A stretch of DNA of 64,000 nt, from the sequence record KP869112, one strand, 5' to 3'. This document shows positions 12,126-47,119 of the stretch, piece after piece. The notes beneath the pieces were generated by a model, which did not search any database, had not been told where the DNA came from, and worked only from the letters and a program-made list of their open reading frames with translations. Both the position numbers and the translations under genes were made by a program. Source of the DNA: Escherichia coli O157 typing phage 14. Each line of letters opens with the position of its first letter. Position 1 is the first letter of the stretch.

Positions 12126-12520
12126 TGGTAAGCCTATACCGTGTTGAGTATAGCTCAGATACTGTATACAACGTAAGAAGCAAAGATCGCAGCAACAGAG
12201 TGCAAGAAATGTATGTTCTTGCCGACAGTCCGTTATCTGCAGCGTTCAAGGCAGGGGCTCTTGCATCTCGTTGGAAATTTGAAGGCGGATCTTTCTATGA
12301 AGAAACCCTTGAAGATTCTGTTGTTATTTCTTCTGTAGAGGTTTCAGATGACTACGAAGGGAAAAAGTTCGTAATGCGGCACCCACACAGCAACATTGCG
12401 TACTACTGGGATGTTCTGAACAACGAGTGGACCCCAGATCTTCAGAAGGCCACTGTGCTAACACCGTTTTTGGCAGATAAGTTCCCACCAGAAGGTAATT
12501 TATCCGCACTGTTTCAGTAA
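12125..12520 (+). CDS. hypothetical protein, paralog of 9920..10318
   Basis: See 9920..10318. Confidence 0.5.
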   Translation: MVSLYRVEYSSDTVYNVRSKDRSNRVQEMYVLADSPLSAAFKAGALASRWKFEGGSFYEETLEDSVVISSVEVSDDYEGKKFVMRHPHSNIAYYWDVLNNEWTPDLQKATVLTPFLADKFPPEGNLSALFQ

Positions 12521-18985: not shown

Positions 18986-19012
18986 AAAGAAAGGGGCCTT
19001 TTAAAGCCCCTG
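18986..19012 (-). terminator. rho-independent terminator (minus strand)
   Basis: GGGGC...GCCCC hairpin followed on minus strand by TTTCTTTTTG. Confidence 0.6.
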
Positions 19013-19449: not shown

Positions 19450-19596
19450 GGTGTTTTTACCTCTTAGTTAATTTTCTTACAACTTCCCTTCAAAAAAGAA
19501 TATAGCAAAACTGCCGATCCTTGTCAACCAAGGATAGCATAATTTTTATGTGATCAAGGGGCTTTATTGCCCCCTCTGATCGTGCAACTTGTTGTA

Positions 19597-19860: not shown

Positions 19861-19937
19861 GATGTTTCCTCTTTATGTGGTTCGTTTTGATTAGTTGATA
19901 ATACAGCAGTTCGCAGATCAGTCTTTAGCAATTCATG

Positions 19938-20156
19938 CTATTTACTCACAAGGGTGTCGAAAACAAATTTTTCTTTATTGTCTAAACTCACGTATCCGAT
20001 TCGACCACGCAAGCCGCAAGTAGTGCCGTACTCGTAACCATTAAGGCCTTTAACCTTCCAATCCGTACCCATTAAAACCGCATTATATTCCTGACCAACT
20101 ACAAAAGCGCCCCCAGTCGATTCAATGCAAACAACTTTAATTTTACGGGTTGTCAT
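19938..20156 (-). CDS. hypothetical protein (72 aa)
   Basis: Conserved leader motif upstream. Confidence 0.5.
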   Translation of the reverse strand: MTTRKIKVVCIESTGGAFVVGQEYNAVLMGTDWKVKGLNGYEYGTTCGLRGRIGYVSLDNKEKFVFDTLVSK

Positions 20157-20216
20157 TTTCTTTCTCTCTTTGTGTGGTTCTGATTAGTGGGCCTTTTGGC
20201 CCGTGTCATTATCTTA

Positions 20217-20489
20217 TTACTTGCGGCGGCAGAATTCAAGCGTTTTTAATTGATAATCTTCCTCAGCCTGGAGTACGACCGCCTCGATCATTTCGTTGGC
20301 ATTGTTAAAGCCATAACCTTTAGCGAACTCATCCGCGCCACCTTCGTGATCATGTTCTGCGTTCATCGCTTCCACAAAATGGAATTCCAAATTGTTGAGG
20401 TAGGGGCTTGATGTTCCGTCCTCTTTTTCGATGAGATCCCAAATAGCATTAAAACGTGATTCGACTTCTTGATTAATCCAGCTTGACAT
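20217..20489 (-). CDS. hypothetical acidic protein (90 aa)
   Basis: Promoter, hairpin, CACACAACAACCAGAAGAGAGGAAAACATT leader, ATG. Confidence 0.5.
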   Translation of the reverse strand: MSSWINQEVESRFNAIWDLIEKEDGTSSPYLNNLEFHFVEAMNAEHDHEGGADEFAKGYGFNNANEMIEAVVLQAEEDYQLKTLEFCRRK

Positions 20490-20543
20490 AATGTTTTCCT
20501 CTCTTCTGGTTGTTGTGTGGGCACTTTTGCCCCTTCAAGATAA

Positions 20544-20572
20544 ATGTTACCCCACCCCCTGGCAGATGTCAA
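20544..20572 (-). promoter_or_regulatory. sigma70-like promoter on minus strand (TTGACA-N17-TAACAT)
   Basis: Hexamers read on reverse complement upstream of 20217..20489. Confidence 0.5.
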
Positions 20573-20700
20573 CGGTTTTTATAGTTCTTATATGACAGGC
20601 ACCCCCGGTGATTGTCTCCCCCCGTCGCCAGGTGCCTGCCGTGGAATAAGTATAACAAAAAACAGGACCATTGCAAGCCCTGTTTTGTAGTTTATAAATA

Positions 20701-20892
20701 TTATATTTTTTCGCCTATGTAGTCCGGTCGGTTTTTCTCTGTCATGCGCTTTAGCAATTCTTGAATAATCCATATTGCGGTCAATGTCTCATCTTCACGC
20801 TTTGAGTCAACATAATCAGGATCGTTTATAACCTTTGTTTGATTATGATATCTCAATACCGCCAACACTTTTACAGCTTCATCAGTGGTCAT
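20701..20892 (-). CDS. hypothetical protein (63 aa)
   Basis: ORF in minus array. Confidence 0.4.
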   Translation of the reverse strand: MTTDEAVKVLAVLRYHNQTKVINDPDYVDSKREDETLTAIWIIQELLKRMTEKNRPDYIGEKI

Positions 20893-21037
20893 TATCGCAC
20901 CTAAAACAATGAGTTAATATATAACACCAGATCGCTGACCACTAGAATAACACTGATCAGCACATACCTAACCATAAGGGGAAAGAGCGCCAATATTGCC
21001 ACCACAATCCCCAAGGTGATGATTATCTTTTTCATGG

Positions 21038-21322
21038 TTAACGGTTCACGTAAGTTTTCCCGTTCACGGTTATGGGCAGATCCTCCAGGTCTGGGTCTTC
21101 CTTAAGGTCGCGAGCAAGCTCACCGCACCGGATACCCTCGAATCCGTAGTACTCTGTTGTACCGTCATTAAAAGTTTTAGCGGCAAGGCATAAGCGATAA
21201 GTAACCCCGATTTGATTGACGGCATGGATATCCGTTAGATCAACCTCTTTTGCCAGCTCTTTAGCCATTACAGGCGCATTAAGTCCAACAACCAGGGCAA
21301 CCACTGCGATCATCTTTTTCAT
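21038..21322 (-). CDS. secreted/periplasmic small protein with signal peptide
   Basis: MKKMIAVVALVVGLNAPVMA N-terminus resembles Sec signal peptide. Confidence 0.5.
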   Translation of the reverse strand: MKKMIAVVALVVGLNAPVMAKELAKEVDLTDIHAVNQIGVTYRLCLAAKTFNDGTTEYYGFEGIRCGELARDLKEDPDLEDLPITVNGKTYVNR

Positions 21323-21413
21323 TGTGTCTATCCTCTTTCTGCTACGTTTAAGGCGGCGGTAACCGCCTGTTTATGCTTTGTTGGTTAATTTTCAGGTATC
21401 TGTATAAATTAAA

Positions 21414-21638
21414 CTATGCTGTACGCTCAACTATAACAACGGTTTGGGGGATCTCACCTTCCACCACTAGTAAGGCCTTTTTCTGCGTGATGGATATCTT
21501 TACCCGTTGCAGCGTGGCGGTGAAGTCTTTCATTTCGTCACGTGGTGTTTTAGTGCAATGCCAGATCTCAGGCTTACCTATTTGCAAGCCGCGTAAAAAT
21601 TCTGTTTTACCTGTCTTATTCGTGATCATTTTATTCAC
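21414..21638 (-). CDS. hypothetical protein (74 aa)
   Basis: ORF in minus array. Confidence 0.45.
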   Translation of the reverse strand: MNKMITNKTGKTEFLRGLQIGKPEIWHCTKTPRDEMKDFTATLQRVKISITQKKALLVVEGEIPQTVVIVERTA

Positions 21639-22086
21639 CTTAACCGATACCGTGGGAAGATAGGATCATGTTAGCCATAGTTGCAACCACTCCAACCGAT
21701 AATGCCAGGCCAACTACTACAACCGTGAAAATTTTCTCTAACATGATTCTACCCTCATTAATGGGCGTTGCCTTATTGCCCCGCCCTACGAAATACATTC
21801 TACCCGATTTGTAATTGTTGTCAAACTATTTTAACGATAATCATCATATGCTTTATTTACCTGGCGAATATAACATTCAAAAGCCAGATCAATAGATTTA
21901 TATTCACGAATATACTCACCATAGGAAACCACATACATTTCTATAGCTTCCTCATATGCGAGGAGAATAGAATCTAAGCCTACGATCTCAGTCTTTGCAA
22001 TAATAGCCATGATTTTTATCCTCTTTGTGGTTGGTGGGGCTTGTTGCCCCCCTTTGATTTATATATTACAGTCTTATATGGTCATG

Positions 22087-22320
22087 TCAACTATTTTCAA
22101 AAAATTTTTCTGCTGTGATATTTTTCCCGGTCGGATTCGCTACTTTCAAAATTTTATCATGTACTGGACGCCCAAAAGAATAAGATCCGTATACAGTAAA
22201 CCAATAATCGCCGTCAGGCTGTACTATTACCGCCGCATATGGTACGCCTTTTTCGTTTTTGCTGACAAAATAGATCACATTGCCATTAATAGCCTCAGCG
22301 CGTTTAATTTGTTCCATCAT
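22087..22320 (-). CDS. hypothetical protein (77 aa)
   Basis: Leader motif (AAAGAGAGGTAAATCATC-ATG). Confidence 0.5.
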   Translation of the reverse strand: MMEQIKRAEAINGNVIYFVSKNEKGVPYAAVIVQPDGDYWFTVYGSYSFGRPVHDKILKVANPTGKNITAEKFFENS

Positions 22321-22374
22321 GATGATTTACCTCTCTTTATTTTCATAATTGGGGCCTTTTCGGCCCCGCCAGGT

Positions 22375-22659
22375 TTATTTATTGATAGCGTGCAGCGGGA
22401 AAGGTACGCCAGGTTGATAGATAACTTTTACAACCTCATCAGGGCAAAAGAAATTGCAGAATTCCCCCTGATAAGCCTCATCCTCTTTCAATTCTTCATC
22501 AACATACTCAAAAAAGTAGTCAACACTTGGATAATCTTGCCCTGGGTTATAGTCAACCATTGTCAGGACCAGTTCAAGATCGTTGCGTAGGATATGCATA
22601 CCCGCTTTTAAGTATTTTGCTTCCATTTCTACTACATCGCCAGCGGTAACAATAGCCAT
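22375..22659 (-). CDS. hypothetical acidic protein (94 aa)
   Basis: Leader hairpin plus RBS upstream. Confidence 0.5.
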   Translation of the reverse strand: MAIVTAGDVVEMEAKYLKAGMHILRNDLELVLTMVDYNPGQDYPSVDYFFEYVDEELKEDEAYQGEFCNFFCPDEVVKVIYQPGVPFPLHAINK

Positions 22660-22861
22660 GGTTTTAACTCCTATCTATCCGGTTAATGATTGGGGGGCCT
22701 CCCCCCTGACACGTCCTATTATCCATATTGTAGGGCTTGATGCAAGTACTTCTTTAAAAAATTTTTAAGCGCCTTGGGGCCGCTGTAACGCTAAAATAAT
22801 AAAGGCCATGCAACCGCATAGCCTTTATGTGATTATATCACTGCAGGACCTGCTAGAGGCC

Positions 22862-23212
22862 TTATTTTGCATTCTTGCCTGTATTGCCGCCACGGTACCA
22901 GCGTTTGCGGTGAAAATGGTAATAATCACCCTCGGCATTAAACATCAGATGATTTTCAATAACCAGCTTACGAAGGTGGGCCGGATCTTGTTCCATTCTT
23001 GCCAGATTCCGGCGGCTGTTACGTAAGCGTATAAATTCCATATTCAGGCCGTTGATTGCAGCATGGATGTCAAAGTAACCACCTTTGAGACGTTCACGCA
23101 TGGCGTTAAGCTCAACACAATATACAGATTTCTCACAAATCAAGGTATTAGCTAGGGCGCGGACCTGGGCAAGGGGGTTAAGCTCATTAAGGTAATATAG
23201 TTTGACTTTCAT
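22862..23212 (-). CDS. hypothetical basic protein (116 aa)
   Basis: ORF in minus array. Confidence 0.5.
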   Translation of the reverse strand: MKVKLYYLNELNPLAQVRALANTLICEKSVYCVELNAMRERLKGGYFDIHAAINGLNMEFIRLRNSRRNLARMEQDPAHLRKLVIENHLMFNAEGDYYHFHRKRWYRGGNTGKNAK

Positions 23213-23229
23213 AAAATCGCCTGCTGAAA

Positions 23230-23538
23230 TTAGTTTGAGAAAACATCGTTCACAATAGCGATCACAATGCCGCCCACCTTGTCACGGTCAACAATGCACA
23301 AATCACCATGGATCATGCGGTAGTCTGGATGATCTTTCACAGAATAGTCAATAAGTGTTTTCTTGTCGTCCAGCTTCGTAACTTCCATTCTCATAACGAT
23401 ATGAGAATCATCAAAGGCATTATTCCGAAAAGTCATAGCCTGACCGCCAGGGCACCCGGTGATCTCCACTTCCACACCATCTACGATCTGACCATCAAAG
23501 AAATAAAGATTATTAGCCTGGATAAACATGTCTATCAC
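23230..23538 (-). CDS. hypothetical protein (102 aa)
   Basis: Downstream of conserved promoter-operator element. Confidence 0.5.
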   Translation of the reverse strand: MIDMFIQANNLYFFDGQIVDGVEVEITGCPGGQAMTFRNNAFDDSHIVMRMEVTKLDDKKTLIDYSVKDHPDYRMIHGDLCIVDRDKVGGIVIAIVNDVFSN

Positions 23539-23573
23539 TCCTTGTTAACTGCGTGGTATTTTAACAGGGTTTA

Positions 23574-23620
23574 AATTTACTTTATTGATGGCCCTGGAGT
23601 CAAGGCCATCTAAAAATAAA
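23574..23620 (-). promoter_or_regulatory. conserved promoter-operator element (copy 1 of 3)
   Basis: TTGACT-N18-TAAATT on minus strand with 24-bp hyphenated palindrome GATGGCCCTGGAGTCAAGGCCATC over the -35. Confidence 0.5.
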
Positions 23621-23622
23621 TT

Positions 23623-23823
23623 TTACAGGCCTACAATCTCTTTGATTCGTTTAACCGCTGCCTCAGCGCCTTGGGGGTAAAAATTATGGTAACCAATCAC
23701 GCGAGTGATACTAATCGCCGTTTGATGATCTTCATAGTCGCCCTTGAAGATTTCTTGACCGTCAATCAGCACGGCAATTTTTTCTTCTTTTTTGAAGTTA
23801 ATAACGCGGATATTGTTGCTCAT
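23623..23823 (-). CDS. hypothetical protein (66 aa)
   Basis: Leader motif AGGAGAAACAAA-ATG. Confidence 0.45.
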   Translation of the reverse strand: MSNNIRVINFKKEEKIAVLIDGQEIFKGDYEDHQTAISITRVIGYHNFYPQGAEAAVKRIKEIVGL

Positions 23824-24078
23824 TTTGTTTCTCCTTTCTGGTTTTTGTGTTGGTGGGGATGTTTCCCCGTTGATTGTTATTATCCATATTGCGGACCAGA
23901 TTGCAACACCCTGGAAGAAAAATTTTTTGAAAAAGTTAAGCCCCCCATGATCGGGGGCGTTATCAGTTACTTATAGCAATAAAGTACATTCCTACCCCTA
24001 ACAATATTTCAAGGGCGATGATCTCAAGCCATACCATAACCTGGCGCACCTTATCGGTGCGGGGCTTATCCTTGGTTG

Positions 24079-24324
24079 TCATCGTCTCCCCCTTTCCTCC
24101 TGGTAGTAGTGACGTAGTTTACAATGGCCCCCAGGAGTACCATCACCACGCACATCATAAGAAAAATTATCTCTGTCGTTGTTCGATCCATTGTTATAAA
24201 ATTCCTCAAGATCAGGCCTGAAAATAAAGCGTTCGTTATTGAATCCATCACGCCAGGCGGCTGGCTTCAAATCTTCATTAAAGGGATTAATTAACGTGGT
24301 ATTATTTAAACGGCTGGCCCACAT
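24079..24324 (-). CDS. hypothetical Asn/Asp-rich protein
   Basis: Internal ATG with GAGAGG RBS chosen; ORF track 24079..24342. Confidence 0.35.
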   Translation of the reverse strand: MWASRLNNTTLINPFNEDLKPAAWRDGFNNERFIFRPDLEEFYNNGSNNDRDNFSYDVRGDGTPGGHCKLRHYYQEERGRR

Positions 24325-24673
24325 ATTTTCTATTCCTCTCAAATAGGCGATCCGCCTCAGTTAAACATATCTCATGGGCTTGATCTCTGGTTTTAGCCTC
24401 ATCAAAAACTTGTTGTGCCAGGCTGCAGCGCAAGGAGACCGGAAGATCACTATAATAGGCGTTAACAAAAGTTTGGGCGTCATACAGGTCGGAAAATACT
24501 TTACCCTTCTTATTATTATCCTTGTCAACAATTGCAAGGATAACTAGTACAATGGTTGCAACCACCCCCAAGAAAATAGATATAATAAACCATAAAAAGG
24601 CGGATCTACCCATCTTGCCAGCTATCCAGGCGTTGAACAAGGCAACTACTACAGCCAAAATAATAAATTCCAT
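24302..24673 (-). CDS. small membrane protein (2 TM helices)
   Basis: Start at internal ATG (MEFIILAVV) with AAGAGG RBS; ORF track 24302..24811. Confidence 0.45.
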   Translation of the reverse strand: MEFIILAVVVALFNAWIAGKMGRSAFLWFIISIFLGVVATIVLVILAIVDKDNNKKGKVFSDLYDAQTFVNAYYSDLPVSLRCSLAQQVFDEAKTRDQAHEICLTEADRLFERNRKYVGQPFK

Positions 24674-24740
24674 TCTATGTACCTCTTTTGCAGTTCTGTT
24701 TAACAATAAGGCGGCAAATATGCCGCCGCCTGTTACCTGA

Positions 24741-25121
24741 TTAAAAACTATCGCCGTAAATCTTCCCGCTTTCTGCCCACACCACCACGCGGGGCATACT
24801 ATCCCACACATCTTGTTTTAGATTGAGCGCGTGCAATTCTTCGATGGTGCCCATACCGGGCACGGGCTGATTGTATACTGCAAAACGACCACCCGCATAA
24901 TCATAGGCTAGAATTAAATCACACTGGATCATCTTTTTGATCATGGCATTAAGCATGGCGTTAGCCGCATACTGATCACGTTTTAAAGGCAACTCTTTGA
25001 TTAGTTTGCGATAGTTTTCGATATGGTCGCACACTGTTTCACGCGGAAGATCTTTCATATCCTCGCGAAAGGTAACCAGGTTAAACATAACGGTGTAAAT
25101 AGCTTTGGTAGTGTTTTTCAT
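24741..25121 (-). CDS. hypothetical protein (126 aa)
   Basis: Leader motif upstream. Confidence 0.5.
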   Translation of the reverse strand: MKNTTKAIYTVMFNLVTFREDMKDLPRETVCDHIENYRKLIKELPLKRDQYAANAMLNAMIKKMIQCDLILAYDYAGGRFAVYNQPVPGMGTIEELHALNLKQDVWDSMPRVVVWAESGKIYGDSF

Positions 25122-25210
25122 GATGTTTTCCTCTTTGTTTTGTGTGGGGGCAAACGTCTTGCCCCTTGAGTTTTAATATAGCAGGTTTTTAGGTTATTGC
25201 AACACTTTAT

Positions 25211-25834
25211 TTATGAAAAAGTCATCTCGCCATATTCATCCACATCAAACCGCCAATCATTGGCCTCGATAAGGCCGATCAGGTTTTCGGTGGTGAATTG
25301 TTCAAGATAGGCTTGCTCCAGGTCTACGTAAACCTTGCGGGATAACTCCCGTACCGTCTCGGTGATCAGCTCTTCCAGCTCTTCAACTTTATCCTCTTGC
25401 TTGGTGGTCAGGTCTAGCCAATTGGTATCGATGCACCCGCCTATTGTGTTTTCGTGATGATAATGGCTAAACGGGATACGTTCAACGCTGGCTGACAGTT
25501 CGCCATCATGCATTGTGCCGAACAAGTGTCTAATTAAGCGGAATTTTGTAAGCGCTTTAACCTTACGCAAGAATTTTTCTAAGTTTACATTTTCAGCGCT
25601 AATTGATGCGCCGTCGCCTTGACACCAAAAGCCGGACCAATGTATTTCGGTATCTTCAAGGCCATACTCTGGAAAAACATATTCTTTATAGTACTCAATT
25701 ACACTTTCTGCAAAAAAGTTATCCCCGCTGTGTTCTTCTCTTTCGCGGACCATTTCAACAGCTTTTTCTTTTTGTTCGTCGGTCAGCACGTCGAAAGATA
25801 AATTGTAACCTGTAGTAATGTTAACGGTGGTCAT
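25211..25834 (-). CDS. hypothetical acidic protein (207 aa)
   Basis: ORF with leader motif; Glu/Asp-rich. Confidence 0.5.
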   Translation of the reverse strand: MTTVNITTGYNLSFDVLTDEQKEKAVEMVREREEHSGDNFFAESVIEYYKEYVFPEYGLEDTEIHWSGFWCQGDGASISAENVNLEKFLRKVKALTKFRLIRHLFGTMHDGELSASVERIPFSHYHHENTIGGCIDTNWLDLTTKQEDKVEELEELITETVRELSRKVYVDLEQAYLEQFTTENLIGLIEANDWRFDVDEYGEMTFS

Positions 25835-26142
25835 GATATTTTCTCCTATTTTCTTTGTTAGTGGCGGGNNNNNNNNNNNNNNNNNNNNNNNNNNNNNNNN
25901 NNNNNNNNNNNNNNNNNNNNNNNNNNNNNNNNNNNNNNNNNNNNNNNNNNNNNNNNNNNNNNNNNNNNNNNNNNNNNNNNNNNNNNNNNNNNNNNNNNNN
26001 NNNNNNNNNNNNNNNNNNNNNNNNNNNNNNNNNNNNNNNNNNNNNNNNNNNNNNNNNNNNNNNNNNNNNNNNNNNNNNNNNNNNNNNNNNNNNNNNNNNN
26101 NNNNNNNNNNNNNNNNNNNNNNNNNNNNNNNNNNNNNNNNNN

Positions 26143-26295
26143 TTTAATCACTGGACGGCCTTGCCAGTGCCCTTGGAGAAAGCGCGCTTTAACTTTATCG
26201 GTGGAACTATCACGCCACCAAACGGCTTTATTATTGCAGTAGTAAAAATTATTCAGGACAACATCGACTTTATCAAAATTTTTTAATTTACGCAT
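26143..26295 (-). CDS. hypothetical protein, 3' end lost in assembly gap
   Basis: ORF runs into N-run 25862-26142; leader motif upstream. Confidence 0.35.
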
Positions 26296-26506
26296 GGCGT
26301 TTACTCCTTCCTTCTTGCTTTGATGTGGTTAGTATATCCGGACTATCCCAAGGTGTCAAGCTTTAAATAGAATCACTGTCAATAATATTTTTAACGCCAT
26401 AAAACGGCCCTAGACGCTGTTTTCAGGTTAAGAAAGGGGATTGCATAGGTAGGGGCCTTTATGGCGCTTGTAGGGCCAACCAGGGGCGCTATCGGCGGGA
26501 TAGAAA

Positions 26507-26532
26507 TAAAAAGCCCCGCACAATGGCGGGGC
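26507..26532 (-). terminator. rho-independent terminator (minus strand)
   Basis: GCCCCGC-CATTGTG-GCGGGGC hairpin followed by TTTTTATTTC on minus strand. Confidence 0.7.
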
Positions 26533-26540
26533 GTTGGTTG

Positions 26541-26738
26541 CTATTTGTCTTTGTGGCGGTATCGTTCCGCCTGTCGTTCACGTTCCAAAAGCAGGCCCGG
26601 TAATTTGCGATCATAGTGATTTCTCCAGATCTTCCCGAACCTTTTCGGTTTATTCGGTTTATTGTTACGCTGGCGGCGTTCCGGCAGCTCTTCGGAATCG
26701 TGGGGGCGCTTTACAATTTTTTCGAAATTAATTTTCAT
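26541..26738 (-). CDS. small basic protein (65 aa)
   Basis: Internal ATG with AAGGGGGCG RBS; Arg/Lys-rich; ORF track 26541..26762. Confidence 0.45.
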   Translation of the reverse strand: MKINFEKIVKRPHDSEELPERRQRNNKPNKPKRFGKIWRNHYDRKLPGLLLERERQAERYRHKDK

Positions 26739-27081
26739 AAACGCCCCCTTTACTGATCTCAATATTTGCCTGAATCGCCCGGATACGACGTTTTATAGTC
26801 TCCTGATCCTTGCAATCATATCCCCAAAAGTCTACGATTTTTGCGCCGCCAGCCTTTAAGCGGTATAATGTTTCTTGCATCTTGTAAGCTGGGATCGGTC
26901 TCGGTGTTACCTGGTCCCCTTTCTCATCCTTGTACTTGATAATGTAGTCTTCATTGTCGTTGAATACCCAAAATGGGTATTCTGTAAGCGCGTTGCTCTC
27001 TTTTTCGTTTTTGGATTGGATCTTGTTTACAATTAAAGCCGTAGCAATAGCGCCAATAATAAAACTTGCCCCGCTGATCAT
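26728..27081 (-). CDS. hypothetical protein with N-terminal TM helix
   Basis: Internal ATG with AAGGAG RBS; ORF track 26728..27099. Confidence 0.45.
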   Translation of the reverse strand: MISGASFIIGAIATALIVNKIQSKNEKESNALTEYPFWVFNDNEDYIIKYKDEKGDQVTPRPIPAYKMQETLYRLKAGGAKIVDFWGYDCKDQETIKRRIRAIQANIEISKGGVYEN

Positions 27082-27157
27082 GTTACTTTCTCCTTTCATT
27101 GTGCTGATAAACTATCTTTATAGATGGCCCTGCTACCAGGACCACCGAAAAAACAGT

Positions 27158-27403
27158 TTATTTGACGATACCGACAAAACAGATCCCGCCTTCCCCTATA
27201 TAGGCAACATCGGTAATTTTATAATTTGTCAAGATCCGCGTGTTCAGATCATTAATAAAATCGGTCATCGCGTTGGTGTAGTTGTCTTCCGTGTCTAAGG
27301 CATAATCCCAGGTGTAAACCTTTTTACGTCCGAAGCCTTTTACCATGATACGGGCGCTTTTGGTGTTGGTAGGGGCATAATATTTGGTGATTAGTGCTGC
27401 CAT
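27158..27403 (-). CDS. hypothetical protein (81 aa)
   Basis: Downstream of conserved promoter-operator element. Confidence 0.5.
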   Translation of the reverse strand: MAALITKYYAPTNTKSARIMVKGFGRKKVYTWDYALDTEDNYTNAMTDFINDLNTRILTNYKITDVAYIGEGGICFVGIVK

Positions 27404-27444
27404 GGTTTTAACTCCTCTGAATTAGTTCAGTGTTAACAGTATAA

Positions 27445-27490
27445 AGTTTACTTTATTGATGGCCCTGAAGTCAAGGCCATCTAAAAATAA
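27445..27490 (-). promoter_or_regulatory. conserved promoter-operator element (copy 2 of 3)
   Basis: 46 bp identical to 28055-28100; TTGACT-N18-TAAACT with palindrome GATGGCCCTGAAGTCAAGGCCATC. Confidence 0.5.
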
Positions 27491-27492
27491 TC

Positions 27493-27834
27493 TTACTCGT
27501 TTTCTTCCAGCTCTGCAAGCTCTTCTTTTGCTTCTTCTAACTCTGTCTGTAGTTCCTGGTATTCTTCATCGTCCTCAATATCCAGGCTGTCGATGTAGTC
27601 GCTAAATCCGCAGCGGTAAGCGATAGGATCTAGCTCCTCGAGGATACGCGACGGAAGAAAAGAAATGTTTCCGATCATAATTTCGCCGTAGATCTCGTCT
27701 AACCATTCATCATAGTTTTCGTCGTACTTGTCCTCGTCGATTTCAAAGTTATCGATCTTATTCTCAAGGTCTGCGATCTGTTTTTTCAGCGCGGCGATCT
27801 GCATGGCTTTTTCTGCGGCGGTCATAGTAGTCAT
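27493..27834 (-). CDS. hypothetical acidic coiled-coil protein (113 aa)
   Basis: Leader motif upstream. Confidence 0.5.
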   Translation of the reverse strand: MTTMTAAEKAMQIAALKKQIADLENKIDNFEIDEDKYDENYDEWLDEIYGEIMIGNISFLPSRILEELDPIAYRCGFSDYIDSLDIEDDEEYQELQTELEEAKEELAELEENE

Positions 27835-28054
27835 GGTGTTTTTCTCCTTTTGTGTGTTCTGGGAAGTTTTCCCGTCTATGTGTTTAGTATACTGATCTAA
27901 GTTAGCTTGTCAATTAAAAGTTTAAGAAAAATTTTGCGATACCGTTGGCGCTACCCATCAACATTTGCGCCAGGATGTAACCAATGATGCAAACGATAAT
28001 AGTTACCTTTGTGTGCTGGCGTGTAGTACTCATCTTTAAGCCCCCTTTCCGCTC

Positions 28055-28100
28055 AACTGTGGTTAGTTTACTTTATTGATGGCCCTGAAGTCAAGGCCAT
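28055..28100 (-). promoter_or_regulatory. conserved promoter-operator element (copy 3 of 3)
   Basis: Identical to 27445-27490; a 36-codon hydrophobic ORF follows on minus strand (about 27925-28033). Confidence 0.5.
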
Positions 28101-28112
28101 CTAAAAATAAAC

Positions 28113-28517
28113 TCAGTAAGTTTTCAGTACTTTACCGTCCAACCTGTCAAGCTGGATCTCGATAGCTGCAGAAAACCTATTGTAAACCACATCGCCCATA
28201 GAATCCAACCAGTCTATGACATTATACACTTGCTCTTTGTTCTTGCAGGTCCGGATCCGTTTCATGATGTAAGCCGGATCAATATTGGTACTCTCGTTGG
28301 TGTTCCCCTGTACCTGGTTTGCCGTATTAGTTACATCTTTAATGGCCTTTACCACCACCTGGAATGGCTTTAAGGTGCCTTTTGCGTTCATCTCACGCGC
28401 TTTTGCGGCGCGGTTGTTATATGTTACACAACGGCGGCAAATGTTGACCAAATGCATATCAATAATTTTTTCATCGTTTGCCAGTTCGTTCATGATGCGG
28501 CGTACGTTCTTATTCAT
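28113..28517 (-). CDS. hypothetical protein (134 aa)
   Basis: Leader motif with hairpin GGCGGGAATGTTTCCCGCC. Confidence 0.5.
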   Translation of the reverse strand: MNKNVRRIMNELANDEKIIDMHLVNICRRCVTYNNRAAKAREMNAKGTLKPFQVVVKAIKDVTNTANQVQGNTNESTNIDPAYIMKRIRTCKNKEQVYNVIDWLDSMGDVVYNRFSAAIEIQLDRLDGKVLKTY

Positions 28518-28600
28518 GATCTTTTTCCTTTGTGTTGGCGGGAAACATTCCCGCCTTTTGTGCCTAGTTTACTTTAATTTTGCAGCGTGTCAATAATTTT

Positions 28601-28999
28601 TTATTCATGGGCGCATGTTACAATGTGCTTTTTATAGCCCAGGTGGTCAGCAAGTGCCGACAAAAACTCTTCTTCGTAGATCCAGCCGTCGGCAGTGATC
28701 CCCATAGCATTTAATGCGCTCTCAAGTGCTGCGTTAGCTTTATCATAACCGTGACCGCTCGCCTTGCCGCCAGTATAGCCGTACTTATTGTTCTTGTTGT
28801 CGTGTATCCAAAAAACGCAGTAGTAAGTGTTCCCGCTGGCGGCGGCATAATACCGGATCTCAGCTACTTCGTGCAAATTATTGTCATCGTCCAGGCCCAC
28901 CAGATTATAAGCCTTGTAAAATCCACGATCACGGCGGCAGTTCTTGACATCAGAAAAAGAAAAGTCTGCATTATCAAAATTAAAGGTAGTGGTTTTCAT
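28601..28999 (-). CDS. hypothetical protein (132 aa)
   Basis: Leader motif upstream. Confidence 0.5.
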   Translation of the reverse strand: MKTTTFNFDNADFSFSDVKNCRRDRGFYKAYNLVGLDDDNNLHEVAEIRYYAAASGNTYYCVFWIHDNKNNKYGYTGGKASGHGYDKANAALESALNAMGITADGWIYEEEFLSALADHLGYKKHIVTCAHE

Positions 29000-29063
29000 G
29001 ATTTTATCCTCTTAGTGTCTTTTGTGCTTTTAGTGTATTTGGTGTCGGACTATATGTCAATAC

Positions 29064-29261
29064 TTATTTTTTATTAAACCAGTGGTTGATCTGACCTTTT
29101 GTCAGGGCGCAACGATTAAGCTGTTGCAGGGTATAGCTATGACCGCGACGAAATTTATAAAGGCCTTGCCCGTTGTTGATGGTTACATCCACCCGGCAAA
29201 TCACTTGATTGGTGACCACCTGGCGAGTGTTGCGACGTACTTTGATCCCGTATGCGTTCAT
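29064..29261 (-). CDS. small basic protein (65 aa)
   Basis: Internal ATG preceded by AAGAGGATAAATTT leader; ORF track 29064..29339. Confidence 0.4.
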   Translation of the reverse strand: MNAYGIKVRRNTRQVVTNQVICRVDVTINNGQGLYKFRRGHSYTLQQLNRCALTKGQINHWFNKK

Positions 29262-29946
29262 AAATTTATCCTCTTTACTGGTTAGTGCGGTGTTGTTCAC
29301 CTTGTAGGGTAATAATACCATGATTAACCTTGTTGTCAACGACTATTTTAAATTATTTTTATGATAGAATCCACCTGCCGCCCCCGCCAGGTTAACCACC
29401 ATTTTTTCGTACTCTTCTTTATGTTCCAACGCTCCCGCCATAGCCTTTTCAACCAGGGCGATAGCCTCAGCGTCATTAATCGCTACATTTTCCAGGGGAT
29501 CATATTACCTTTCATTTTTGTACCTCCTCTCCAGTTGTTGCCTACCCTATAGCATAGCCCTACCAGGTTTGCAAGCTTTCACTCTCCCCTGCCAGGCTGG
29601 CCCCGCCAGGTCCTGGCAGTGGGCGCACCTGGTTATAATTTTTTTTTTGAAAGGTGTTGACAGCGGCCCCGCCAGGTGGCACAATATACCTATCGAAAGG
29701 ACGGCAGGCACCGGTGACGGGGGAGACAACCACCGGGGATGGGCGCTGCATAAAATGAGAACGGTTATCATTATCATTTAAAAATTTATGCAAAAAATCC
29801 TTGCTTTCTTTGTCCTGTGTGATACTATAATAACAAGCCGGGGCAACAGGGGCCGGGAGACAATCACCGGGCCTGCCCGTTATTCTGCAAACGAGAATGA
29901 TTATCATTCAAAATTCTAAATGAGAACTCCTCACATTTAATAAATT

Positions 29947-45676: not shown

Positions 45677-46716
45677 AAGCGCTTCTGGTTTTTTCCATTT
45701 TTGAAACTAACGCCGCCTTCATTTGCTATTCCATTCCAACTAATGTCTGTCCAAACATCAGTTATTAGTTCCGCAGGTCGCATCTCACCGTCAATTTCCA
45801 AAAGCCTGTTGGAGTAAAAGACCATTTGCCTACCATTTGCGATATAAAATCCTTCAACATCCTCATTCGGATGTACATAAACCTTATCCCTATCTTTCTT
45901 TGACTTCTCGATAGTTTCTTTTCTCTTTATTTTAGCGCCACCACCAATTGCAACAGATTGAAATACACGTTCTGCATTATCAATTGCGAATTGTGCTAAT
46001 TCATCATCGAATGTGTCAGGCAGTTTTTTCTTAGCTTCTTTTGCATCTTTATAGCCATTGGCCTTTGCAAACGCATCGGCAATACCGCACCACGTCCAAT
46101 TTTTATAATGGTCATCCGGGTTTAATAGGTATTTGTTATATCCTGTATCATACCCTTTAGGTATATAGATTTTGTTAAGCGGTTTCTGGGTGCGATCTTT
46201 TGCATATACAAGCAAAAAGTTTGCTGTGGAGAAAACTGTGGCTCCTGTTGCCTTAAATCCCGAAGGGAAATTTGTGGTCATCGATATGGTATTTAACTGA
46301 TTTGCACGACCAAAAATCTCGTCCATCAAAACTTTTAAATACGCCATTTCGCAATCATCTAAGTGAACGAATATTACCCCATCATCACTTAGAAGATTAC
46401 GAATTATTTCTAACCTATCCCTCATTAAGCCCAGCCAAACGGAATGCTCCAGGCTATCATCGTAGTGCTCAAAAGCCCTCCCGGTATTGAATGGTGGGTC
46501 TATGTAAACACACTTCACTTTGCCTGCATACTCTTGCTCTAGCGCCTTCAATGCTAATAAGTTATCTCCAAAAATCAGTTTATTATCAAAAATATCGTTT
46601 TCGGTCACTTTCTGGCTGTGGTAAGACTTGCTAGAATCTTCTAACAAAATGTGCTGCTCTAACTTTTTGCGCTCGTTTTTACCTATCCAGGTAAGTTCTA
46701 ATTTGGTTTTACTCAT
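45673..46716 (-). CDS. N-terminal segment of split beta-class DNA methyltransferase (DPPF catalytic motif)
   Basis: VYIDPPFNTG motif IV; ends 4 nt into the downstream frame carrying motif I. Confidence 0.6.
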   Translation of the reverse strand: MSKTKLELTWIGKNERKKLEQHILLEDSSKSYHSQKVTENDIFDNKLIFGDNLLALKALEQEYAGKVKCVYIDPPFNTGRAFEHYDDSLEHSVWLGLMRDRLEIIRNLLSDDGVIFVHLDDCEMAYLKVLMDEIFGRANQLNTISMTTNFPSGFKATGATVFSTANFLLVYAKDRTQKPLNKIYIPKGYDTGYNKYLLNPDDHYKNWTWCGIADAFAKANGYKDAKEAKKKLPDTFDDELAQFAIDNAERVFQSVAIGGGAKIKRKETIEKSKKDRDKVYVHPNEDVEGFYIANGRQMVFYSNRLLEIDGEMRPAELITDVWTDISWNGIANEGGVSFKNGKNQKRF

Positions 46717-46774
46717 CGTTTGGTGCTCTCCTTAGTTTTTGTGGGGAGGAGTGCCTCCCCTTTATACTCACATC

Positions 46775-47119
46775 TTACTGCTCAAGGTCTTCAGAGTCAA
46801 GCTCAAAAAGAATCAAACTGTGCATGCCTGCAGAGAGATCAACACACCCTGCAACAATAAGGGTTTGATAGTAAGGTTCAGCACCCTCAATGTCTTCGTT
46901 AAAATCCACAACAAGGTAGTCACCTTTGTTAAAGGTGTATTTGTCCGATGTAAACGCAAAACCTGCCCAGTCCCCTACTGCAGGATCTTTATCAGTCACC
47001 TTTGTTAGCAGTAGATCTTTTTCACGAGATCTTTTAGTAAAATCGTGAATCACAACATCCTTCTCTTCAGGAGTTGGATTGCCGCACACGTAGTTAACGA
47101 TATTTCTCCACAAACTCAT
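46775..47119 (-). CDS. hypothetical protein (114 aa)
   Basis: 4-nt overlap with helicase gene. Confidence 0.5.
   Translation of the reverse strand: MSLWRNIVNYVCGNPTPEEKDVVIHDFTKRSREKDLLLTKVTDKDPAVGDWAGFAFTSDKYTFNKGDYLVVDFNEDIEGAEPYYQTLIVAGCVDLSAGMHSLILFELDSEDLEQ

Follow-up and report, generated by a model that had tools for sequence, protein, structure and literature searches.

The DNA analysed here, called the window, is a stretch of 64,000 nt from Escherichia coli O157 typing phage 14 (KP869112), an rV5-like coliphage (Vequintavirus) that shows 93-96% identity over the window to rV5, naswa and related phages. Between 19 and 29.3 kb the minus strand carries a block of small early genes with unknown functions, matching rV5 ORF164-197. 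A sequence-only reading had noticed that genes in this block are preceded by short GC-rich hairpins, and the question is what these hairpins are part of and what they do.

Gene starts and cassette layout

In this block, 29 start codons between 19.4 and 29.3 kb were classified. Nine have a promoter, a hairpin and a leader (ATG 28517, 27834, 25834, 25121, 23823, 22659, 22010, 21744 and 20489, counting the 25834 cassette, which is half masked by an N run and was rebuilt from relatives), and three have hairpin and leader with no recognisable promoter (ATG 22320, 21322 and 20156). A different repeat, with the hairpin enclosing the -35 box, precedes three or four starts (ATG 28033, 27403 and 23527, plus a degenerate copy at 27081). 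About five have a promoter and/or an A/C leader and no hairpin (ATG 29260, 28999, 26295, 19860 and 19449), and about eight are packed tightly behind the preceding gene. The architecture that had been described is real, and GC-rich minus-strand hairpins do precede an A/C-rich tract, a AAAGAGGA-type Shine-Dalgarno sequence and ATG, but it had been ascribed to most genes and is found at 12 of about 29 starts. At these 12, a hairpin with a G-rich 5' arm and no T tail leads into an A-rich, U-poor leader; hairpins of the type quoted in that reading are GGGGC-aacaa-GCCCC (22050-22036) and GGGGCAA-gacgt-TTGCCCC (25165-25147), both on the minus strand. Overall, its interpretation is partly supported.

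The hairpin-plus-CACAAAGAGGA leaders are the predicted transcribed portion of repeated early-gene expression cassettes. An AT-rich tract comes first, followed by a near-consensus sigma-70 promoter, a GC hairpin, a leader and the small gene's start codon. The hairpin, of 5-9 bp and with the G-rich arm as its 5' side, lies about 10 nt past the -10 box; the leader is 17-29 nt long, A-rich, U-poor and unstructured, with a strong AAAGAGGA Shine-Dalgarno sequence. The predicted promoters (TTGACA-N16/17-TAnAnT) match 9-11 of 12 consensus positions, and the nine hairpins that follow them start 9-12 nt beyond the -10 box. The sequence-only reading had overlooked this promoter context, and also that the cassette is common to other myovirus genera and lies at indel junctions between related phages. 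The cassettes are as follows, all on the minus strand.

28515..28593, minus: cassette, -35 TTGACA 28593-28588, -10 TAAACT 28571-28566, gap 10 nt; hairpin 28555-28537, GGCGGGAA-tgt-TTCCCGCC; leader AACACAAAGGAAAAAGATC; ATG 28517; predicted fold -14.6 kcal/mol, z -3.9; hairpin kept in 7 relatives, loop different in phage WM
27832..27913, minus: cassette, TTGACA-16-TATACT, -10 end 27886, gap 12 nt; hairpin 27873-27861, GGGAA-aac-TTCCC; leader AGAACACACAAAAGGAGAAAAACACC; ATG 27834; z -1.95
25832..25868, minus: 3' half of cassette, 3' arm CCCGCC 25868-25863; leader ACTAACAAAGAAAATAGGAGAAAATATC; ATG 25834; promoter and 5' arm masked by N run 25869-26142; relatives have TTGACA-16-TATACT taaacacaca GGCGGGAA-aac-TTCCCGCC
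25119..25202, minus: cassette, TTGCAA-16-TATATT, TG-extended, -10 end 25175, gap 9 nt; hairpin 25165-25147, as quoted above; leader CACACAAAACAAAGAGGAAAACATC; ATG 25121; z -2.6; 8 genomes have five different versions of stem and loop, each of which folds
23821..23906, minus: cassette, TTGCAA-16-GATAAT, -10 end 23879, gap 10 nt; hairpin 23868-23855, GGGGA-aaca-TCCCC; leader ACCAACACAAAAACCAGAAAGGAGAAACAAA; ATG 23823; z -2.6; loop altered in relatives, stem GGGGAG/CTCCCC in WM and YN3
22657..22745, minus: cassette, TTGCAT 22745-22740, spacer 16 nt, GATAAT 22723-22718, gap 11 nt; hairpin 22706-22692, GGGGGG-agg-CCCCCC; leader with TAGGAG; ATG 22659
22008..22090, minus: cassette, TTGACA-16-TAATAT, -10 end 22063, gap 10-12 nt; hairpin 22050-22036, as quoted above; leader ACCAACCACAAAGAGGATAAAAATC; ATG 22010; z -3.2
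21742..21824, minus: cassette, TTGACA-16-TAGAAT, -10 end 21797, gap 10 nt; hairpin 21786-21763, GGGCG-(14 nt)-CGCCC; leader ATTAATGAGGGTAGAATC; ATG 21744; z -3.8; conserved in Phapecoctavirus and Justusliebigvirus, hairpin replaced by GCGGGAA-tac-TTCCCGC in locus L011
20487..20572, minus: cassette, TTGACA-17-TAACAT, -10 end 20544, gap 11 nt; hairpin 20532-20519, GGGCA-aaag-TGCCC; leader ACACAACAACCAGAAGAGAGGAAAACATT; ATG 20489; z -2.3
46714..46800, minus: the sole clear cassette of the same type in the window beyond the reported region, TTGACT-17-TAAGAT, gap 11 nt; hairpin 46760-46743, GGGGAGG-cact-CCTCCCC; leader ACAAAAACTAAGGAGAGCACCAAACG, then ATG

Other elements of the block, also on the minus strand, are the following.

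22351..22367, minus: intergenic hairpin GGGGCC-gaaaa-GGCCCC, no recognisable promoter, no T tail, upstream of ATG 22320; kept in 8 genomes
21351..21368, minus: intergenic hairpin AGGCGG-ttaccg-CCGCCT or GGCGG-tta-CCGCC, upstream of ATG 21322; relatives show three versions of stem and loop, each of which folds
20189..20202, minus: intergenic hairpin GGGCC-aaaa-GGCCC, then leader ACTAATCAGAACCACACAAAGAGAGAAAGAAA, ATG 20156
19861..19883, minus: leader GAACCACATAAAGAGGAAACATC with no hairpin, ahead of ATG 19860
28065..28110, minus: second cassette type, TTATTTTTA GATGGCC-ttgacttcag-GGCCATC AATAAAG TAAACT; hairpin 28101-28078, its loop containing the -35 box TTGACT
27445..27490, minus: second copy of that type (hairpin around the -35 box), hairpin 27481-27458
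23574..23619, minus: third copy of that type (hairpin around the -35 box), hairpin 23610-23587
19557..19575, minus: hairpin AGGGG-gcaataaag-CCCCT, G-rich arm first, no T tail, lying about 27 nt ahead of the -35 box in promoter 19527-19499

Excess over chance, strand specificity, and conservation with covariation

If only the Shine-Dalgarno sequence were shared, the hairpins could be incidental GC-rich palindromes. A generic GC-hairpin covariance model does pick up unrelated window hairpins as well (E-values 0.1-10), and the ATG 22659 cassette is statistically the weakest case because its whole-leader fold has z = 0, with no fold excess. Against this, strict criteria find seven promoter-then-hairpin sites, all with the G-rich arm first, whereas 200 dinucleotide shuffles give a mean of 0.3 and a maximum of 3, none reaching 7; the plus strand of the same region has no such site. 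Allowing at most 3 mismatches, the window has 10 matches to the pattern CACACAAAGAGGAAA, against 3.0 expected (reached in 0 of 100 shuffles), 6 of them on the minus strand at 19.8-29.0 kb.

The layout is found in three genera. It lies on the gene strand at 18 of 29 strong promoters in Phapecoctavirus Schickermooser, at 10 of 20 in Justusliebigvirus alia and at 4-6 strong promoters in each of the rV5-like relatives; none was found on the other strand of these genomes, and every hairpin in them has the G-rich arm first. A 50-nt probe spanning -10 box, hairpin and leader matched 651 places in 156 phage records, with almost no annotated feature beneath. Across 51 distinct leaders drawn from 7 sources, the first paired base is most often separated from the -10 box by 10 nt (9-12 nt in 39 leaders), the hairpin lies 17-29 nt from the start codon in 48, and the leaders are 53% A and 14% T, against 31% and 27% in the background.

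In all 11 orthologue groups the hairpin is kept in every genome examined, with altered loops, longer stems or swaps of the whole hairpin. From these comparisons it is evidently the structure that is conserved, and not the sequence. Covariance-model alignment of 67 distinct hairpins, which is fitted to the model and includes related, non-independent copies, has 88.8% of cells paired against 72% when shuffled. Two-sided changes occur in 6 of 8 pairs (one pair is CG in 33, GC in 30 and AU in 3, with none unpaired), and the covariation score is 0.41, against 0.15 for shuffled alignments (0 of 500 reach 0.41) and 0.11 or less when the pairing partner is shifted. No surplus of G-U pairs, which would have been proof of function on the sense strand, was seen (22 G-U against 25 A-C cells). 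The sequence-only reading had named what would refute it, a shared Shine-Dalgarno sequence alone with hairpins lacking or not covarying; this check does not refute it, as hairpins occur in all orthologues examined and covary. Shuffle counts, covariation and conservation in orthologues refute chance, which we regard as having a negligible probability.

A fixed position relative to the promoter would also suit recognition sites for a phage or host protein, be it an RNA-binding translational repressor, an endoribonuclease, or a DNA repressor with its operator at +5 to +25, which would co-regulate the entire early gene set or shut it off. Co-ordinated early-gene shut-off is common in large lytic phages (T4 RegA and RegB). 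At more than 20 promoters of Phapecoctavirus and Justusliebigvirus the hairpins are near-identical (TAGGGCGGCAATGGTGCCGC or GGCGGGAA-tag-TTCCCGCC), but for Phapecoctavirus this uniformity is explicable by recombination between copies. Stems vary freely within the window and among its close relatives (GGGGCAA, GGGGA, GGGGGG, GGGCA, GGGAA, GGCGGGAA), loops range from 3 to 14 nt, and whole hairpins are swapped at orthologous sites. The common element is only a G run followed by a C run, and therefore too little for sequence-specific recognition, which makes a protein target improbable.

Position in the transcript and likely role

The closest known system is the promoter/stem-loop (PeSL) cassettes of the T4-like phages RB49 and phi1 (PMC2839356, PMC4122927), and the RB49 ORF207 sequence, read directly, has the same geometry as the window cassettes. 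For PeSL stem-loops a role as terminators or attenuators has been proposed and partly tested, and here too such a role would limit the build-up of transcription along tandem promoters by stopping read-through from upstream cassettes. PeSL stem-loop 211/210 cut lacZ expression as strongly as the rrnB T1 terminator (PMC2839356). The window hairpins are intergenic, and a few G-first hairpins are T-tailed (for example 24727-24710). The sequence-only reading held that there is no T tract and that these are not simple terminators, and both points hold: the A/C-rich 10 nt after the stem contain 0-3 T, as against 5-8 for the six terminator-like hairpins of this region. RB49 stem-loops likewise have no long U tracts, and terminator-like activity was measured for one of them with no obvious U tract (PMC2839356), so that a missing U tract does not by itself dispose of attenuation. 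Position is a further argument. Nine hairpins lie just past their own gene's promoter, and termination at that point would cut short the transcripts of the very cassette; between the hairpin and ATG 22320, 21322 or 20156 there is no further promoter, so that these genes would be silent if it terminated efficiently. We consider termination unlikely, though somewhat less so than a protein target.

With somewhat better than even confidence, we propose instead that these are modular early-gene cassettes in which a 5'-proximal hairpin protects or insulates at the RNA level, and which form a shuffling-prone unit. Host RNA polymerase would initiate about 7 nt past the -10 box, so that the hairpin would form at about mRNA position +3 to +7. 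There it may protect the 5' end, or keep RNase E and RppH from 5'-end-dependent entry and scanning. The hairpin may also insulate the ribosome-binding site against upstream sequence, which would therefore give transcripts from the cassette's own promoter, from read-through and from processing an equal translation context, while the U-poor leader would keep the Shine-Dalgarno sequence unpaired and offer few RNase E sites. Of the 8 predicted 5' untranslated regions, 7 have no stable structure other than the hairpin, and the Shine-Dalgarno sequence is predicted unpaired (z -1.95 to -3.9). The earlier suggestion of 5' stabilising stem-loops or regulatory sites fits this geometry, with the hairpin predicted to begin about 2-6 nt into the transcript. 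That base pairing at the 5' terminus protects mRNA is established for ompA and papA (reviewed in PMC3997798); the predicted single-stranded overhang, at 2-6 nt, equals or exceeds the length at which protection of the ompA type is reportedly lost, and by this prediction RppH would still have access. Having no promoter, three of the hairpins could not serve to protect the 5' end of a primary transcript, unless the transcripts are processed. The searchable literature yielded no transcription start, half-life or reporter data on rV5-like phages.

Indel junctions and proposed recombination at the cassettes

Several indel junctions among related phages lie inside repeated promoter, hairpin or leader motifs. 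A deletion inside the shared leader GAACCACAyAAAGAG removes the ATG 20156 gene from WM and JEP1, with an overlap of 8-19 nt, the junction partners being the leaders ACTAATCAGAACCACACAAAGAGAGAAAGAAA (ATG 20156) and GAACCACATAAAGAGGAAACATC (ATG 19860). In JEP1 a 1.2 kb replacement starts exactly at the -35 box of the ATG 22010 cassette, and an rV5 replacement likewise starts at a -35 box. A further deletion in WM lies between two AGGGGC hairpins, and the hairpin at 19557..19575 is one partner of a deletion junction in this phage.

These junctions in -35 box, hairpin and leader repeats, and the PeSL mini-circles demonstrated from such recombination in RB49 and phi1 (PMC2839356), might mean that the hairpins have no role in expression, being recombination or cruciform hot spots in DNA or hitch-hikers of a selfish repeated cassette. 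Recombination depends on identical sequence, whereas the stems diverge and keep their pairing; nor would it call for the G-rich-arm-first orientation, a constant spacing from the -10 box or the U-poor leader, which are specific to strand and transcript. We therefore judge this very unlikely.

Under the proposed combination of an RNA-level hairpin with a shuffling-prone unit, the cassette of about 90 bp would be a substrate for homologous or microhomology recombination because it is repeated many times, and recombination between cassettes would insert, delete and swap small genes. The same gene-shuffling role has been proposed for PeSL cassettes in T4-like phages (PMC2839356, PMC4122927). The leaders of the rV5-like phage cassettes are elements of the same kind as PeSL, a class already described.

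Cassette architecture in the early block

The segment 19000-29400 of the window is 93-96% identical to Escherichia phages rV5, naswa and EmilHeitz and to about 250 other records. Its counterpart in rV5 is ORF164-197, these being small hypothetical minus-strand genes for which annotation in the rV5 record is limited to a few sigma-70 promoters and terminators. The rV5 genome paper lists 33 promoters and 20 terminators and leaves leader hairpins unmentioned (PMC3606486); this paper and those on CB7 and the O177 phage give only promoters and terminators. It is worth adding that about 20 'Campylobacter phage' records (MG0656xx, host C. jejuni) are 92-94% identical to this E. coli phage group across the whole early region, and their assignment to a C. 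jejuni host looks doubtful.

The minus strand was read, and the 95 nt lying 5' of 29 start codons were printed out and sorted by layout, with genes named by the coordinate of their ATG. The sequence-only reading had placed a GC hairpin, a Shine-Dalgarno-like tract and ATG before most genes. The pattern exists, but it is less general than was claimed:

ATG 28517, 27834, 25834, 25121, 23823, 22659, 22010, 21744 and 20489 (minus strand): promoter, GC hairpin, A/C-rich tract, AAAGAGGA-type Shine-Dalgarno and ATG (the full cassette)
ATG 22320, 21322 and 20156 (minus strand): hairpin and leader, with no recognisable promoter
3-4 starts: a different 46-nt repeat, with a GATGGCC...GGCCATC hairpin that has the -35 box TTGACT in its loop
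about 5 starts: promoter and/or leader, no hairpin
about 8 starts: tightly packed behind the preceding gene
46800-46714: the sole clear cassette elsewhere in the window

The predicted cassette promoters are near consensus (TTGACA/TTGCAA-N16-17-TAnAnT, 9-11 of 12 positions), with A/T runs upstream. The stems are of 5-9 bp with the G-rich arm first, and every cassette ends in the AAAGAGGA-type Shine-Dalgarno and the ATG of a gene encoding 34-207 amino acids, annotated as hypothetical. A regularity overlooked previously is that all nine promoter-bearing leader hairpins sit 9-12 nt 3' of the -10 hexamer. Nine of the ten cassette copies in the window fall in 20.5-28.6 kb, and the tract CACACAAAGAGGAAA is in excess (10 matches against 3.0 expected), six of the ten being on the minus strand within 19.8-29.0 kb. 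The leader of ATG 25834 is half masked by a run of N at 25869-26142, where relatives have a full promoter and GGCGGGAA-aac-TTCCCGCC. This run, 274 nt long, stands for only 146-148 nt in the related phages rV5, WM and JEP1, and masks a whole promoter as well as the end of one gene and the leader hairpin's 5' arm.

The absence of a T tail, also claimed previously, was borne out: 12 leader hairpins are followed by 0-3 T per 10 nt. The early block also has six terminator-like hairpins with 5-8 T in the following 10 nt, at 26532, 24727, 23958, 22828, 20686 and 19011. Like intrinsic (Rho-independent) terminators, the leader hairpins are GC-rich, intergenic and of 5-9 bp, but they differ in the missing U tract and in their position downstream of a promoter.

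Under strict criteria (9 or more of 12 promoter positions matched, and a perfect stem of 5 bp or longer beginning 6-14 nt after the -10 box), the early block contains 7 promoter-hairpin sites, all 7 with the G-rich arm first, whereas 200 dinucleotide shuffles gave a mean of 0.3 and a maximum of 3; no such site occurs on the plus strand of this block. With transcription assumed to start 7 nt after the -10 box, the predicted 5' untranslated regions span 46-56 nt. In 7 of 8 of these the predicted fold has no stable structure other than the hairpin, the Shine-Dalgarno is unpaired, and the hairpin begins 4-7 nt from the assumed start; the fold z scores run from -1.95 to -3.9, with one leader at 0. 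Across 51 distinct leaders, pairing most often begins 10 nt after the -10 box, and in 39 of them the gap is 9-12 nt; the distance from hairpin to start codon is 17-29 nt in 48. A makes up 53% and T 14% of these leaders, the background values being 31% and 27%.

Two further repeated elements were seen in the region. The 46-nt repeat, TTATTTTTAGATGGCCTTGACTyCAGGGCCATCAATAAAGTAAAyT, is a predicted promoter lying directly past the upstream stop codon, with the -35 hexamer in the loop of a 7-bp hairpin; three exact-type copies were found against 0 expected. The second is a GC-rich element, CCGGTG(A/G)TTGTCTCCC, in three copies.

28110-28065, 27490-27445 and 23619-23574 (minus strand): 46-nt repeat
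about 27150-27110: degenerate copy of the 46-nt repeat
29855-29870 and 29721-29736 (minus strand): CCGGTG element
20605-20620 (plus strand): inverted CCGGTG element, within a long imperfect palindrome at about 20600-20650

The CCGGTG copies at 29.7-29.9 kb lie just upstream of the early block. Each follows an AT-rich Fur-box-like sequence (GAATGATAATCATTCTC; AAATGATAATGATAACCGTTCTCATTT; at 29909-29893 and 29779-29753) and precedes a TATAGT or TATATT that resembles a -10 box. AT-rich boxes of this kind, with GGTGtTTGTCT, are found upstream of the early block of the Phapecoctavirus Schickermooser (its sequence L006, about 12140-12245). The CCGGTG elements have no Rfam match; they might be an immediate-early control region, a replication origin or a protein-binding site.

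Conservation and covariation of the stem-loops

The cassette is a real feature, statistically strong and evolutionarily conserved. In Schickermooser more than 20 early genes are preceded by TTGACA-N17-TAAGAT gtatcacgTAGGGCGGCAATGGTGCCGCtcac...Shine-Dalgarno...ATG, or by a GGCGGGAA-tag-TTCCCGCC variant. A hairpin follows 18 of the 29 strong gene-strand promoters in Schickermooser, 10 of the 20 in the Justusliebigvirus alia, and 4-6 in each of the rV5-like relatives. The promoter-hairpin layout is absent from the opposite strand of all these phages, and their hairpins have the G-rich arm first without exception. A 50-nt probe comprising the -10 box, hairpin and leader matched 651 places in 156 phage records, with almost no annotated features beneath the matches.

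For 11 orthologue groups, drawn from up to 8 Vequintavirus genomes, every genome has a predicted hairpin at the matching place. Stems and loops vary, and what is conserved in orthologous leaders is the predicted structure and not the sequence:

ATG 25121 leader (minus strand): five versions, namely GGGGCAA/TTGCCCC, a register-shifted copy, GGCGGGCGA/TTGCCCGCC, a changed loop, and GGGGCGAG/CTTGCCCC
ATG 23823 leader (minus strand): three loops and one extended stem
ATG 21322 leader (minus strand): three versions
ATG 21744 leader, in a metagenomic contig: hairpin swapped whole for GCGGGAA-tac-TTCCCGC, downstream leader unaltered

An IMG/VR pattern scan for variants of one leader returned a single contig only.

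MAFFT misaligned the 3' arms of paralogous hairpins, and a covariance model from a gap-free seed alignment was used instead, which aligned 76 hairpins (67 distinct) from six loci. In the window the model also matches terminators and unrelated hairpins at E 0.1-10; it is a low-information, generic GC-hairpin detector and was therefore used solely for alignment, not for family detection. In the 67-hairpin alignment, which is fitted to the model and made up of mutually related copies, 88.8% of the cells are paired, against 72% when shuffled. Both-sided changes occur in 6 of the 8 pairs, one of which is CG in 33 hairpins, GC in 30, AU in 3, UA in 1 and unpaired in 0. The covariation score, for the same model-fitted alignment of related copies, is 0.41, against 0.15 for shuffled alignments (0 of 500 reached the observed value) and at most 0.11 with a slid partner. 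This covariation supports the predicted pairing of the cassette stem-loops. G-U and A-C mismatches, compared as a test for sense-strand RNA, numbered 22 and 25, with no G-U excess, and this particular argument for sense-strand function was therefore dropped.

Relation to PeSL cassettes and other known elements

Promoter-early stem-loop (PeSL) cassettes have been described in the T4-like phages RB49, phi1, T4/PST and KVP40/nt-1 (Arbiol et al., 2010, PMC2839356; Comeau et al., 2014, PMC4122927). Those of RB49 and phi1 have strong sigma-70 promoters with an AT-rich tract upstream, and a stem-loop that is often a G run followed by a C run. Where the stem-loop lies separates five PeSL subclasses, among them one that overlaps the -35 box and one downstream of the -10 box; the cassettes end with a Shine-Dalgarno and start codon, and are clustered in variable regions before small genes of unknown function. 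They have a role in modular shuffling (PMC2839356; PMC4122927); stem-loop termination or attenuation has been proposed, and mini-circles arising by inter-cassette recombination were shown in RB49 and phi1 (PMC2839356).

The window elements match this description point by point. They have an AT-rich tract and a predicted consensus sigma-70 early promoter, an adjacent stable stem-loop (often a G run then a C run), and an A/C-rich leader with Shine-Dalgarno at the start of a small unknown-function gene. They are clustered in variable early regions and placed at insertion, deletion and replacement junctions. The positional subclasses found in the window are downstream of -10, enclosing or overlapping -35, and upstream of -35 (19575-19557). 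RB49 ORF207, read directly, has a -10 box, 12 nt, GGGAG...CTCCC and then acaaattgagga, which is the window-type geometry, and RB49 leaders, like those of the window, begin CACACA.

Junctions were called by comparing the window with rV5, WM and JEP1. As plain counts from a small sample, five fall in cassette motifs and at least two others outside them:

gene at ATG 20156 (minus strand), deleted in WM and JEP1: junction in the shared leader GAACCACA(C/T)AAAGAG, with 8-19 nt overlap
1.2 kb replacement in JEP1: starts exactly at the -35 TTGACA of the ATG 22010 promoter
ATG 21744 cassette, replaced in rV5: starts just 3' of the -35 box
gene at ATG 19449, absent in WM: deletion between two AGGGGC hairpins
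18992-19011: terminator-like hairpin AGGGGC-tttaaaag-GCCCCT, T-rich on both sides, at the end of the minus-strand early block
19557-19575: hairpin resembling the 18992-19011 one, with no T tail, 550 nt upstream; the intervening gene is lost in WM
22872-23222: 349-nt insertion relative to rV5 and WM (4 nt there), with a 116-codon gene at 22862-23212; junctions outside cassette motifs

There are also differences. The window phage and its relatives belong to Vequintavirinae/Stephanstirmvirinae, whereas the PeSL phages are Straboviridae, and the dominant window subclass has its hairpin inside its own predicted transcript, at a fixed 9-12 nt past the -10 box. No hairpin sequence homology was found between the window and the RB49 PeSLs. 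A gene-plus-cassette unit shared with RB49 was sought by tblastn with the product of the ATG 20489 gene, a homologue of rV5 ORF167, for which the rV5 record notes similarity to an RB49 protein; the matches listed were from rV5-like phages and siphoviruses. Because the PeSL description matches and RB49 ORF207 shares the geometry, the cassettes are best filed as putative elements of the PeSL kind in another phage lineage, namely the rV5-like, phAPEC8-like and phi92-like phages, with a distinctive within-transcript position of the stem-loop.

Promoter-proximal hairpins in phage early regions are also known as lambdoid nut sites (boxA plus boxB) and as the hairpin promoters of phage N4. The window hairpins are similarly small, early and promoter-proximal, some with A-rich loops (GAAAA, AAAA, AAAG). 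A nut site was rejected since the loops are of 3-14 nt with unrelated sequences, and no boxA-like motif is present in the aligned leaders; an N4-type promoter was rejected on geometry, the hairpins being downstream of ordinary sigma-70 promoters and not forming the promoter. Transcription in rV5-type phages is reported to depend on the RNA polymerase of the host (PMC3606486, PMC7344957). An RNase III site of the T7 early type requires a duplex of about 20 bp or more, and was rejected as the stems are 5-10 bp; a Rho-utilisation site was rejected on geometry. T-rich plus-strand sequence after the hairpins could indicate an antisense terminator, which was rejected because the Phapecoctavirus copies have a T tract on neither strand. 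The only match at E up to 1 in an Rfam scan of 17-32 kb scored 31.5 bits, the gathering threshold being 94.4 bits. A literature search found neither transcriptomes nor mapped transcription starts for Vequintavirus or Phapecoctavirus.

Possible role of the hairpins and implications

The phage T7 gene 10 leader carries a 5' stem-loop, and a hairpin can be an obstacle to RNase E scanning. Stem-loops that act as 5'-terminal stabilisers are found in E. coli mRNAs, such as ompA (hp1) and papA (PMC3997798). The window leaders would resemble these in having a short GC hairpin close to the predicted start of a strongly expressed mRNA, ahead of a ribosome-binding site that stays accessible, and the effect expected of the ompA/papA type is shielding from 5'-end-dependent attack by RNase E and RppH. 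The 9-12 nt gap implies a 5' overhang of 2-6 nt if the predicted start is 6-8 nt past the -10 box, which is longer than the ompA optimum. A further difference is that the ompA and papA stem-loops are single-gene features, whereas the window has a multi-copy recombining module.

We favour an RNA-level role for the hairpins in the 5' leader, built on predicted transcription starts, predicted promoter activity and putative stabilisation. The hairpin would protect the transcript from 5'-end-dependent decay, as in ompA/papA (PMC3997798), and would insulate the ribosome-binding site from RNA lying 5' of it. The U-poor leader would keep the purine-rich Shine-Dalgarno open and present few RNase E sites, and the cassette repeats may secondarily drive the shuffling of small early genes.

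The proposal disagrees with the terminator reading of PeSL stem-loops, because the window hairpin lies inside its own predicted transcript, where such a role fits poorly. One RB49 stem-loop did act as a terminator in a reporter assay (PMC2839356), and the window hairpins might likewise be transcription attenuators, but we consider this unlikely: a terminator 5-25 nt past its own promoter would be self-defeating, the hairpins have no U tracts, and the three hairpin-only genes would be silent. For the downstream-of--10 subclass these sequence features argue against termination, and they are the reason for favouring the RNA-level role. Attenuation is nonetheless retained, given the RB49 result and an overhang at the limit of the ompA type, and on the same grounds so are recognition of the hairpins by a protein, which seems improbable, and action purely at the DNA level, which seems very improbable.

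Going beyond the RNA-level role as a passive stabiliser, the G-first, 5'-proximal hairpin might be an early-transcript RNA tag, shared by Vequintavirus, Phapecoctavirus and Justusliebigvirus and read by a dedicated factor, a speculation to which we give little credence. If true, early mRNAs of the phage could by this tag escape a decay system for host mRNA, or a 5'-end modification system, that the phage induces; the tag could alternatively be the target of a phage protein that shuts off all early genes together.

The early-gene grammar of promoter, about 10 nt, hairpin and U-poor leader aids the calling of early genes and their start codons, and the cassettes explain where strains differ by gain or loss of small early genes. 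They could also serve as compact, naturally occurring promoter and 5'-leader parts for expressing genes strongly in E. coli. As intergenic units of roughly 90 bp they are essentially unannotated, at 651 places in 156 GenBank records. With these elements, mobile regulatory cassettes of the PeSL type would extend beyond the T4-like phages and into another group of large coliphages unrelated to them, the rV5-like, phAPEC8-like and phi92-like phages, which are widely used in phage therapy collections.
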